NCBI GenBank assembly: GCA_965203275.1
Contig: OZ241865.1
Location: forward strand, 2,400,001-2,464,000
Source: Bdellovibrionales bacterium
GTDB taxonomy: Bacteria > Bdellovibrionota > Bdellovibrionia > Bdellovibrionales > JAUICD01
Length of the DNA: 64,000 bases
Direction: 5' to 3'
Of this stretch, positions 38,655 to 44,821 are shown one piece after another (positions within the stretch are counted from its first letter, which is position 1; each line of letters opens with the position of its first letter). The notes beneath the pieces are model-generated. The model saw nothing but the letters and a program-made list of their open reading frames with translations. It searched no databases and was not told the origin of the DNA. A program made the position numbers and the translations under genes.

Positions 38655-41126
<2,472 letters not shown>

Positions 41127-41376
41127 AAATACCTTCAGATATCTTAAAAACTCTAATAGCCTCATATCAAAATAAGGATTTTTAAAAATAAAGTCAAGTG
41201 ATTTCAATATGTTATAAGAATAATGGACTGCGAAAATTTTGCCGTTGTATTTTTATCTTGCTTTGATATAAAAAATATGTAAGTATATAAGTGTTATATG
41301 TTTTGTATCAAAATAGCTATCATGTTATGAATATAAAATGTGTTAAACTATTTCACAGTAAATAAGGAGGTCTCAA

Positions 41377-41652
41377 ATGGATATGGATCAAGTATTAAAA
41401 GAAATGAGAGACATCAATAAAAAAGTCACTCAAAGTTTAGAAAACCAAAAAGAAATTCAAAAAAACCAGGCAGAGTTTAAGAAAGACCAAGCAGAGTTTA
41501 AAAAAGACCAAGTAGAGTTTAAGAAAAAACAAGACGAGATGGAAGCAAGGCTTGCAAATCAAGAAGAAACGACCAAGCACACAAATAAATTGGTATTAGC
41601 TATAAAAAAAAACTGGATTATACAAACCCTGATGGGTCAAAAGGCCGGCTAA
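41377..41652 (+). CDS. Tandem coiled-coil protein copy 1 (extends to 41723 if -1 shifted at A9 41604-41612)
   Basis: TAAGGAGG RBS; repeated (N/D)Q(A/V)EFKK heptads. Confidence 0.8.
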   Translation: MDMDQVLKEMRDINKKVTQSLENQKEIQKNQAEFKKDQAEFKKDQVEFKKKQDEMEARLANQEETTKHTNKLVLAIKKNWIIQTLMGQKAG

Positions 41653-41746
41653 GCAATTTTATTTTTCAATTAATTCAGTGGCTTTTAAGACTTTTTATAG
41701 CAATAGGATTTAACCATAAATAAACTAACTTTTAAGGAGGTCTCAA

Positions 41747-42040
41747 ATGGATGATCAATTATTAAAAGAAATGAGAGACATCAGTAAAAAAGTCACTCAA
41801 AGTTTAGAAAACCAAAAAGAAATTCAAAAAAACCAGGTGGAATTTAAGGAAAACCAGGCGGAGTTTAAGAAAAACCAGGTGGAGTTAAAAGAAAGCCAGG
41901 CAGAGTTTAAGAAAAAACAAGACGAGATGGAATCAAGGCTTGCAGATCAAGAAGAAACGACCAAGCACACAAATAAATTGGTATTGGCTATAAAAAAAAA
42001 CTGGATTATACAAACCCTGATGGGTCAAAAGGCCGGCTAA
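41747..42040 (+). CDS. Tandem coiled-coil protein copy 2 (extends to 42111 if -1 shifted at A9 41992-42000)
   Basis: As copy 1; longest heptad array. Confidence 0.8.
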   Translation: MDDQLLKEMRDISKKVTQSLENQKEIQKNQVEFKENQAEFKKNQVELKESQAEFKKKQDEMESRLADQEETTKHTNKLVLAIKKNWIIQTLMGQKAG

Positions 42041-42134
42041 GCAATTTTATTTTTCAATTAATTCAGTGGCTTTTAAGACTTTTTATAGCAATAGGATTTA
42101 ACCATAAATAGACTAACTTTTAAGGAGGCTTCAA

Positions 42135-42386
42135 ATGGATGATCAATTATTAAAAGAAATGAGAGACATCAATAAAAAAGTCACTCAGAGTTTAGAAAAT
42201 CAAAAAGAAATTCAAAAAAACCAGGCGGAGTTTAAAAAAGACCAAGTAGAATTTAAGAAAAAACAAGACGAGATGGAAGCAAGGCTTGCAGATCAAGAAG
42301 AAACGACCAAGCACACAAATAAATTGGTATTGGCTATAAAAAAAAACTGGATTATACAAACCCTGATGGGTCAAAAGGCCGGCTAA
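42135..42386 (+). CDS. Tandem coiled-coil protein copy 3 (extends to 42457 if -1 shifted at A9 42338-42346)
   Basis: As copy 1. Confidence 0.8.
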   Translation: MDDQLLKEMRDINKKVTQSLENQKEIQKNQAEFKKDQVEFKKKQDEMEARLADQEETTKHTNKLVLAIKKNWIIQTLMGQKAG

Positions 42387-42480
42387 GCAATTTTATTTTT
42401 CAATTAATTCAGTGGCTTTTAAGACTTTTTATAGCAATAGGATTTAACCATAAATAGACTAACTTTTAAGGAGGCTTCAA

Positions 42481-42711
42481 ATGGATGATCAATTATTAAA
42501 AGAAATGAGAGACATCAATAAAAAAGTCACTCAGAGTCTGGAAAATCAAAAAGAAATTCAAAAAAACCAGGTGGAATTTAAGAAAAAGCAAGACGAGATG
42601 GAATCAAGGCTTGCAGATCAAGAAGAAACGACCAAGCACACAAATAAATTGGTATTGGCTATAAAAAAAAACTGGATTATACAAACCCTGATGGGTCAAA
42701 AGGCCGGCTAA
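42481..42711 (+). CDS. Tandem coiled-coil protein copy 4 (extends to 42782 if -1 shifted at A9 42663-42671)
   Basis: As copy 1; shortest heptad array. Confidence 0.8.
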   Translation: MDDQLLKEMRDINKKVTQSLENQKEIQKNQVEFKKKQDEMESRLADQEETTKHTNKLVLAIKKNWIIQTLMGQKAG

Positions 42712-42841
42712 GCAATTTTATTTTTCAATTAATTCAGTGGCTTTTAAGACTTTTTATAGCAATAGGATTTAACCATAAATAAAATAAGGCATTTTGAATA
42801 AAAAAGCATGTCGCCGGCAAACAAATTATAATATTCCATCA

Positions 42842-44821
42842 TTAAATGTCATCTAAGTAAACCCAATATATGATTTGCCTGAATATATAATCACGTATTT
42901 TAGCTGTAGAAGCTGCTTGTAAATGACCATCTTTATCACGTGTCATAGCTCTTTGTGTTCCATCAGGTTGTTCTATCATTCGATAAGGCATACCATACAA
43001 ATTAATAGCAGAATCTATAAAATAAGTAAGAGTATCTTGATCTACATTATGTAGATAAGCTGAAAAACTCTTAATGATAGATGCCATCTGTGCTAAAGGC
43101 ATACCAACTACAAACCCTGAAGTAAACAACTTTACTCTATTTCTAAGAGATAAAGAAGATAAATGTTTACCATTAAAGAAAGATTTAATGAAGTGATATA
43201 AACCAATCAGATCATCTTGAGAAGATCCTACAAGAAGGCCTCTTAATAACATAAGAGTTATCTCTGGATTGTGTGTTTCTTGATTGATCATGAAAAAAGC
43301 ATCGATGAGTGTCTTTTCAGAAATATGCGGAGACATCTCAGCCATCATAAAAAGAATACCAGCATAATCATAACCACGATAGATCAGAGTATTAAAGAGA
43401 TCCCATCGTGTCCTCCAATATATATCTTGTAATTCAATAAAAACTTGACCTTGTATAAAGTTCTCCTTTTCTATCAAAGAATCAAAAATATCATCTGGAT
43501 GCCCTTCTGTAGGAGAGGAATCTAATAAACTGTCTTGGTCTGTTTGATCTTTGATCATCCTAATTAAATAAACATTTTGGAAGCTCCTCATGTAATTAAA
43601 TTTTACTTTTGTGTTTCTTCTTTTTGCTTTTTGATAAACGGAACTAGCTTTATTTAAAATACTATGAAATCTTTCTGATAAAGGGATGTTAAGATTTTGT
43701 TTGTAGGAATCTTTTTGCTGATCAGGAGGTTTTAAGCTCTCTATTTTATTCAATAAACCAGATATAACAAGCACCCTACGTAAAAAAGTTCCATAGAGAG
43801 AATGATGAAATAGTTCTTTAAAATCTTTTGATAAATCCATGAGCTGTTCCTCATTTAAACCAGTGAATTTAGTTAAAACGAATTTATGATATTGAGATTT
43901 AGATTTATTTTTGTCTTTGAATGGATGGTCTAGAAATATGGGGGTTTTTTGCTTTAGTGAGGGTATTATAGATGTGATTCTCATAAGGAAAGCTGTTAAT
44001 TGTATTGAACGTTTTAATACAGAGGCTTGTTGTGAAGGATCTGAATCTTGAGAATGATTTACTTTAGCATATCCCGATTTAAATTTCATCGTGTGTATAA
44101 ACCACTGTGAAATATCTATGTATGAAAAATTCTTCTCTATTTCTTTTAATAAGGATCGAGGTGTGGGCGACCGCACAGTAAGGGAGCTGTCATCTTGATT
44201 CATTGTTTTAACAATGTCATATAATATTATATTTTCTTCTCTGGATTTCTCTAATAAAGTAGGATTGACATGGTTTAAAGACCAGTCCAAATGATTTATC
44301 TTTTGTTCAAACCATTTGATGAGAATACCTGTTTTGGTAGGGCTGTCAACATAGCTAAGTACTTGGCCATACGGGGTATCCTGAACAAAATAAATGACAA
44401 ATGAGAGACGATTTATAGAGTGAATATAAAAAACTGTCTTTTGGTTGTTTTTGATTTGGATCACACGAGAGCTACTGTTTAGAAAATTAAATTTAGATCT
44501 ATCTATTCTGTCTATCCCATAAAAGATCAAATTATATTTTTGAGGGTCATTGTACATATCATATACCAACTCAGAAACAGTTAAAAATTTTATATCTTCC
44601 CAGTGAAAACTCCCCCATATTTGTTTTAGAGCTGAAATTAAATGATTGGTATTTGTATAAGGTAGTTGAATCTTATGAGAAGGTTGAGAGTATACTTCTT
44701 GAAATTGCATTAAAGCTTCATGACATGTTATACGTTTTTGATTTTTTTGATCTCCATAAGTTATGGTATGAAAATATATTATAAATAAACACAAAGTAAG
44801 AAAAAAAGATTTTATATGCAT
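42842..44821 (-). CDS. Hypothetical secreted protein
   Basis: 659-aa ORF with a signal peptide; no family recognised. Confidence 0.7.
   Translation of the reverse strand: MHIKSFFLTLCLFIIYFHTITYGDQKNQKRITCHEALMQFQEVYSQPSHKIQLPYTNTNHLISALKQIWGSFHWEDIKFLTVSELVYDMYNDPQKYNLIFYGIDRIDRSKFNFLNSSSRVIQIKNNQKTVFYIHSINRLSFVIYFVQDTPYGQVLSYVDSPTKTGILIKWFEQKINHLDWSLNHVNPTLLEKSREENIILYDIVKTMNQDDSSLTVRSPTPRSLLKEIEKNFSYIDISQWFIHTMKFKSGYAKVNHSQDSDPSQQASVLKRSIQLTAFLMRITSIIPSLKQKTPIFLDHPFKDKNKSKSQYHKFVLTKFTGLNEEQLMDLSKDFKELFHHSLYGTFLRRVLVISGLLNKIESLKPPDQQKDSYKQNLNIPLSERFHSILNKASSVYQKAKRRNTKVKFNYMRSFQNVYLIRMIKDQTDQDSLLDSSPTEGHPDDIFDSLIEKENFIQGQVFIELQDIYWRTRWDLFNTLIYRGYDYAGILFMMAEMSPHISEKTLIDAFFMINQETHNPEITLMLLRGLLVGSSQDDLIGLYHFIKSFFNGKHLSSLSLRNRVKLFTSGFVVGMPLAQMASIIKSFSAYLHNVDQDTLTYFIDSAINLYGMPYRMIEQPDGTQRAMTRDKDGHLQAASTAKIRDYIFRQIIYWVYLDDI

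Follow-up and report, generated by a model that had tools for sequence, protein, structure and literature searches.

CCDC90-like proteins (DUF1640, PF07798) are coiled-coil proteins with a C-terminal anchor. In tssM1 of Citrobacter rodentium, as reported in PMC4256274, an A11 tract lies 28 nt upstream of the stop codon, an added A gives a longer variant (about 20%), and both forms are needed. Slippage on a run of nine in dnaX of Thermus thermophilus truncates the protein, with about 50% short product (PMC1088944, PMC5009743). In the editing of the Ebola virus glycoprotein the unslipped transcript gives a soluble product and one added A a transmembrane product, according to the account in PMC5009743, which also describes runs of nine A or T as slipping efficiently in transcription in vivo. 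Single insertions prevail in A/T runs and rise with run length in the report of Traverse and Ochman (PMC5574713), and Baranov et al. caution that slippage may be suppressed in AT-rich genomes that have many A9 genes, unless such runs are under-represented there (PMC1088944).

The slip mechanism itself is well known. The locus described here lies in a window of 64,000 nt (the whole stretch of DNA analysed, from contig OZ241865.1 of the Bdellovibrionales bacterium assembly GCA_965203275.1) and consists of four tandem genes for small predicted coiled-coil proteins. Like tssM1, each gene has a poly-A tract shortly before its stop codon and would give two length forms from one bacterial gene. In tssM1, as reported, slippage brings back a canonical C-terminal domain that is widely conserved, whereas the present genes have A9 instead of A11, a predicted 37-residue hydrophobic tail for which an in-frame homologue was not found and a short form whose own ending is conserved. 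As in dnaX, the run of nine A is on the sense strand near the 3' end of the gene; a stimulator was not seen here, and a slip would extend the protein and add an anchor rather than truncate it. The likeness to Ebola virus glycoprotein editing is one of soluble-versus-membrane logic, by analogy alone and with no sequence relation claimed; a viral polymerase and a secreted glycoprotein are involved there, in contrast to a bacterial, signal-less coiled coil of 76-190 aa here. The predicted -1 product has the order of the CCDC90-like proteins, a coiled-coil stalk followed by a C-terminal hydrophobic helix (tail hydropathy 1.61 and 2.30), but the anchor is in frame in those proteins and in the -1 frame only here, and the tail does not align to the PF07798 member of the genome. 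A literature search, with most subscription journals outside its coverage, returned no bacterial instance of slippage, coiled coil and tail anchor occurring together. If real, the arrangement would be a case of bacterial recoding that decides the place of a protein (soluble or membrane-bound) rather than an enzyme domain, and gene callers would miss the long form.

Organization of the array

The array follows the gyrase B gene (38691-41126, a name given by recognition, without a family search) and comprises four ATG open reading frames on the plus strand (91, 97, 83 and 76 aa), each preceded by TAAGGAGG (at 41363, 41733, 42121 and 42467). The coordinates of all features are given in Table 1. 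The four copies differ mainly in the number of 21-nt (heptad) units. The distance from the -1 stop to the next ribosome binding site is 9 nt in the first three copies, and the identity of copy 4 with the repeat unit stops within about 1 nt of 42782, where a sequence-only reading of this DNA had placed the end of the unit. That reading had also counted the short distance to the next ribosome binding site (given as about 10 nt) in favor of the -1 frame; the distance holds, but it carries little weight, since an AT-rich spacer would stop any frame. The 8-nt direct repeat that flanks the array (41360-41367 and 42782-42789) is likely the microhomology or junction of a tandem duplication, to judge from the sequence. 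The array was built by recent tandem duplication of the whole unit from ribosome binding site to -1 stop, with 21-nt heptads gained and lost.

Table 1. Features of the coiled-coil gene array and its dispersed paralogues (window positions unless marked C1)
Feature	Location	Strand	Remarks
Shine-Dalgarno TAAGGAGG, copy 1	41363..41370	+	marks start of repeat unit
Copy 1, frame-0 ORF	41377..41652	+	91 aa, coiled-coil protein
Copy 1, A9 run	41604..41612	+	bridged gap-free by a contig of run X6
Copy 1, -1 tail	41610..41723	+	linker, basic patch, amphipathic/hydrophobic helix; stop TAA
Copy 2, frame-0 ORF	41747..42040	+	97 aa, heptad-richest copy
Copy 2, A9 run	41992..42000	+	bridged by a run X3 contig (collapsed-repeat contig)
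Copy 2, -1 tail	41998..42111	+	stop TAG
Copy 3, frame-0 ORF	42135..42386	+	83 aa, predicted parallel coiled-coil oligomer
Copy 3, A9 run	42338..42346	+	from sequence
Copy 3, -1 tail	42344..42457	+	stop TAG
Copy 4, frame-0 ORF	42481..42711	+	76 aa, heptad-poorest copy
Copy 4, A9 run	42663..42671	+	bridged by a run X1 contig (collapsed-repeat contig)
Copy 4, -1 tail	42669..42782	+	stop TAA
Array-flanking AAATAAGG	42782..42789	+	8-nt direct repeat of 41360-41367, from sequence
Paralogue pA	C1:1199877-1199305	-	190 aa, tblastn
Paralogue pB	C1:1945347-1945751	+	134 aa, tblastn

A scan for terminators and plus-strand promoters gave none above threshold. A sigma-70-like site on the minus strand (42852-42825, 11 of 12 matches) points antisense into the array; nine such sites were found against 7.8 expected, so this one is possibly due to chance. 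An antisense gene over the array was rejected, as only short shadow frames are present. An open reading frame at 42842-44821 (minus strand, 659 aa) had no Pfam match at E up to 1. In a genome of the same genus (G001) the genes behind gyrB differ from the array, and a second copy of the gyrB 3' end is found about 3 kb behind gyrB (C1:2288402-2288527 of that genome) with unrelated genes between, which points to an insertion hot spot at the site that the array occupies here.

The A9 site and the -1 frame

All four copies read ATA AAA AAA AAC in frame 0, with the frame-0 stop 13 residues later, and the heptamers A_AAA_AAA and A_AAA_AAC are both in frame at each run. The -1 frame is open for 37 codons in each copy and ends in TAA, TAG, TAG and TAA, respectively. 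The sequence-only reading was thus correct in its description of the four genes, the motif, the frame-0 ending and the open -1 tails with their stops, although it overlooked the A_AAA_AAA heptamer and two further paralogues. Its main arguments for the -1 frame are weaker than they seemed. The frame is indeed open in all four copies, but these differ at only one base of the 122 nt from ATA to the -1 stop, in the stop itself, so that they amount to a single observation; the alternation of stop codons is real too, but a TAA/TAG swap is one substitution and has little weight. By inspection, no -1 stop could fit the frame-0 residues of the 13-codon overlap, so openness there carries no information. 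The tail reaches a maximal 19-residue hydropathy of 1.61 and has Gln, Gln and Arg on one face, which makes it a borderline transmembrane helix by sequence. The tails of the window and of pB both lack an ATG and a ribosome binding site, which led to the rejection of a separate small ORF there.

Homopolymer under-calls are a known error type, and if the true run were A10 these would be plain coiled-coil-plus-anchor genes; a fall in the number of A runs from 102 (A9) to 10 (A10) would fit such an artefact. Against it, A9 is bridged without gaps by contigs of three public runs from two studies, X1 (42605-42781), X3 (41934-42110) and X6 (41514-41837), of which X1 or X3 may be the source sample and for which sequencing platforms are not on record; a piece from run X7 with 22 letters on one side was left out of this count. 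The indel table was empty in all four runs compared (4 of the 15 listed), within what contigs, which drop rare variants, can reveal. Addition of an A to any of the 109 coding runs of nine or more A opens at most 86 codons of -1 frame; since none exceeds this length, no gene is rescued and A10 is not under-called genome-wide. A variant from another assembly, P0004, also ends in frame 0, and frame 0 past A9 is conserved with synonymous changes (see below). The A9 is real and not an assembly error; the A-run length check that had been set beforehand did not turn up the A10 under-call, and the artefact, which is largely refuted, now has next to no probability. Runs labelled as sponge or marine metagenome hold small shares only.

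Background rates were obtained with a crude ORF caller, which gave 2156 ORFs. These contain 109 runs of nine or more A, and 18 of the 2156 have such a run within their last 26 codons. A -1 frame with hydropathy of at least 1.6 occurs at five of the 109 runs, namely the four window copies and pB, although most of the other runs lie deep inside genes and are an unfair control. Among 1832 gene ends, 135 have an open -1 frame of at least 37 codons, and 42 of the 1832 also reach a 19-residue hydropathy of at least 1.6 (pB counted). In ORFs of at least 150 aa, A runs were compared with synonymous-codon shuffles, giving observed/expected ratios of 0.88, 0.62 and 0.26 for lengths of 8, 9 and 10; such a depletion, rising with length, is as expected if the runs are slip-prone, and A9 runs are moderately under-represented. 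The same ORFs hold 78 A9 runs, including those in the genes for IF2, LeuRS, ValRS, a class Ic (Glu/Gln) synthetase and DnaG. With A9 tolerated in essential genes, slippage in this organism is likely slight, if it occurs. The sole other comparable case among the 109 runs is a 127-aa ORF (C1:404643-405026, plus strand) in which A9 gives a +1 frame of 60 codons with a hydropathy of 2.05.

Dispersed paralogues

A tblastn search of the genome recovered two dispersed paralogues of the array genes, pA and pB. ATA AAA AAA AAC is kept in all six family members of the genome, and pA and pB also keep the frame-0 ending. Comparison of copy 3 with pB reveals synonymous changes in 6 of the 15 same-residue codons of the C-terminal block, all outside the four motif codons, and in 3 of 15 in the N-terminal block; these changes show frame 0 to be under purifying selection and to yield a real product. 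Retention of A9 is weak evidence in itself, because 21 of 30 comparable synonymous codons are unchanged between copy 3 and pB and 20 of 140 genomic IKK+A sites use ATA AAA AAA.

Behind the pB site the -1 frame runs for 41 codons before a stop and reaches a 19-residue hydropathy of 2.30 (1.61 in the window). Hydrophobic residues occupy 17 of the 20 positions after the stop, which is reached by none of 1830 other gene ends in the three frames tested; 13 of 20, counted in the -1 frame, is reached by 35 of the 1830. A gapless comparison of the window with pB over the 20 codons from the frame-0 stop onward gives 32 identical bases of 60 (53% DNA identity). Each of the 13 positions that are hydrophobic in the window tail also has a hydrophobic residue in pB, a match seen in none of 1830 real flanks. 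The two tails agree in the phase of their helical hydrophobic moments (29 and 42 degrees); in both, by sequence, the helix is preceded by basic residues and a helix-breaking linker, and in both only the -1 frame of the three is open over the 20 codons after the stop. Simulation of neutral divergence gave P values of 0.0002-0.002 for the 13-position match from window to pB and of 0.03-0.12 for the reverse, pattern statistics that were chosen after the tails had been seen and that concern two independent tail sequences only. Matches between the two tails are spread over the codon positions as 9, 12 and 11 of 20, without third-position bias; 6 of 20 residues are identical, and the gapped DNA similarity is not significant (P 0.06). 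When the pB flank was shuffled, 14% of trials produced an open frame with hydropathy of at least 1.6, and 2% produced one that matched the observed hydrophobicity. The T-richness of both flanks favors a hydrophobic reading.

In pA the flank is split by an insertion of about 170 nt of a genome-wide repeat, so that the -1 frame ends early and the tail is evidently dispensable there. Past the frame-0 stop, pA and pB differ by a 3-nt indel that leaves the -1 frame intact. Selection on the tail is supported by pB, and pA shows that the tail can be lost. The proposal that each gene may make a soluble and a membrane-associated isoform stands in part. It passed one out-of-sample test beyond the reach of the sequence-only reading, in that the diverged paralogue pB has retained A9 together with a -1 tail that is open, very hydrophobic and in the same register, but pA has lost the tail. 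The similar F-x-x-K-stop ending of pB was left uncounted, as it probably stems from the start of a dispersed repeat. This repeat is palindromic and about 150 nt long, often occurs in tandem clusters, and is MITE- or REP-like by appearance, each of its positions being overlapped by about 900-1040 BLAST hits; examples are C1:1945836-1945983 behind pB and the insertion behind pA.

Predicted structure and relatives

A three-copy model of the 83-aa form (copy 3) is a parallel coiled coil in which contacts span residues 1-76, W72 included. Its score was 0.72 against 0.00 for the best control, the runs agreed in at least 93% of contacts, and pLDDT was at least 83. Of solved pairs, 20 of 30 reached the mark, as did 1 of 23 single chains; a three-copy model falls outside this calibration, and coiled coils may pass by likeness. 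The frame-0 product is accordingly predicted as a parallel coiled-coil oligomer through the slip site to W72. The slip site (I68-K70) coincides with the end of the rod, and W72 is in the predicted core. Because the slip site is at the rod end, both forms would share the rod and could mix.

The genome encodes 40 other small proteins rich in E, K, Q and D, most of them with an N- or C-terminal hydrophobic segment; one belongs to PF07798. Frame 0 of the array family has no such segment (0.45-0.55), and the -1 tail would supply one. These about 40 small proteins with a hydrophobic segment and a coiled coil are encoded at C1:209338-212474, 1938547-1940500 and 2207636-2211731 and at dispersed sites, several in tandem arrays with variable repeat numbers.

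Searches for relatives outside the genome returned little beyond near-identical sequences. Pfam gave only sub-threshold coiled-coil matches for the array proteins, and PF07798 matched neither copies 1, 2 and 4 and the tail (E up to 1) nor pA and the pB tail (E up to 1e-4). No likeness of the array proteins was seen to the CCDC90-like protein of the genome or to a 288-aa coiled-coil protein. The best match in the ESM Atlas (0.90) was hypothetical, with recognition below the mark. Relatives were found in none of 60 near genomes, none of the 4 closest (alignment query) and none of 400 genomes of the phylum. A protein collection held 4 near-identical proteins and none further, and 1.84 billion protein representatives gave a single match, P0004. 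Among candidates from metagenome, genome and viral contigs, 0 of 595, 0 of 333 and 0 of 143 were confirmed, in collections that possibly exclude very near genomes. The array family was thus found in one species only. An in-frame fusion of coiled coil and tail, which the sequence-only reading had proposed to look for in homologues, was seen in none of 21 candidates in the protein collection (a weak search); in the paralogue pB the tail is in the -1 frame.

Proposed mechanism and alternatives

That the hydrophobic tail is a real recoded product, made by transcriptional slippage or by a ribosomal shift, has slightly better than an even chance on the sequence evidence. The most probable single explanation, though short of an even chance, is RNA-polymerase slippage that gives a soluble coiled-coil oligomer and a minor tail-anchored form. 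Each gene would encode a small protein that forms a predicted parallel coiled-coil oligomer. RNA polymerase would slip on the run of nine A in a minority of transcripts and add one A, which leads exactly into the -1 frame. The slipped transcript would then give a longer form ending in a hydrophobic helix predicted to bind the membrane, probably as a low share of the product, given that essential genes tolerate A9. The tail would anchor on the cytoplasmic side, as a signal peptide is not seen by eye and basic residues precede the helix, and one anchored chain may tether soluble chains in mixed oligomers. The genes are candidate members of the programmed-slippage class: the run of nine A is present and correct in the DNA, but its retention in six of six members goes only weakly beyond chance, and the tail is kept in pB and lost in pA. 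A wider reading is doubtful: that in a species-specific family the nine-A slip is built in to set the ratio of soluble to tail-anchored subunits within one oligomer, with rare anchored chains tethering mostly soluble rods and the heptad-variable tandem copies providing rods of several lengths.

A serious possibility, likewise below an even chance, is that these are ordinary genes in which the frame-0 coiled coil alone matters. A9 would then follow from the encoding of Ile-Lys-Lys-Asn in an A-rich genome, and the -1 tail would be hydrophobic by chance, being either a T-rich spacer or what is left of an older anchor now in decay; any slip product would be adventitious. Conservation of frame 0 past A9, with synonymous changes that alter -1 residues, fits this, as do the place of W72 in the predicted core, the commonness of tolerated A9 runs, the 42 of 1832 gene ends that would also yield an open hydrophobic -1 frame, the missing codon-position signal in the tails, the loss of the tail in pA and the reduction of the four copies to one observation. 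It accounts less well for pB, whose tail exceeds all other gene ends tested in hydrophobicity and, at 53% DNA identity, has kept its register, its helical phase and every one of the 13 hydrophobic positions, for the frame-preserving 3-nt indel, and for a duplicated unit that ends at the -1 stop. Under DNA-level phase variation, replication slippage within subpopulations would toggle individual copies from A9 (soluble) to A10 (anchored) and back. Selection on both frames is expected under this model too, and the G or C tracts of the genome (see below) suggest that contingency loci are in use. Yet all six genomic copies and P0004 end in frame 0, four runs show no indel rows (in contigs, which drop rare variants), MutS and MutL are present and essential genes carry A9, so that phase variation of this kind is very improbable.

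The same two products would arise by a -1 ribosomal shift on A_AAA_AAA or A_AAA_AAC, the other route that the sequence-only reading had offered beside polymerase slippage. Two overlapping in-frame X_XXY_YYZ heptamers and a single tRNA-Lys(UUU) in the genome scan speak for it. Bacterial -1 frameshift sites have an upstream SD-like element and/or a downstream stem-loop or pseudoknot. Here SD-like pairing is absent upstream (best -2.8 and -1.9 kcal/mol), and downstream structure is neither significant nor shared (z +0.7 to +1.1 in the window, -0.1 to +0.5 in pB, -2.6 in pA alone, for pseudoknot-free structures). A haloarchaeal virus uses A_AAA_AAC, but E. coli ribosomes, as summarized in the same source, shift much more on A_AAA_AAG than on A_AAA_AAC or A_AAA_AAA (PMC5009743). 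Polymerase slippage is favored over the ribosomal shift because an SD or structure signal is absent, A_AAA_AAC is a weak shifter and insertions prevail in A/T runs; the ribosomal route is improbable.

Elsewhere in the genome 35 G or C tracts of 9-23 nt were found, several of them inside long ORFs or near their starts and one at window position 2739 (G12), and these tracts are candidate phase-variation loci.
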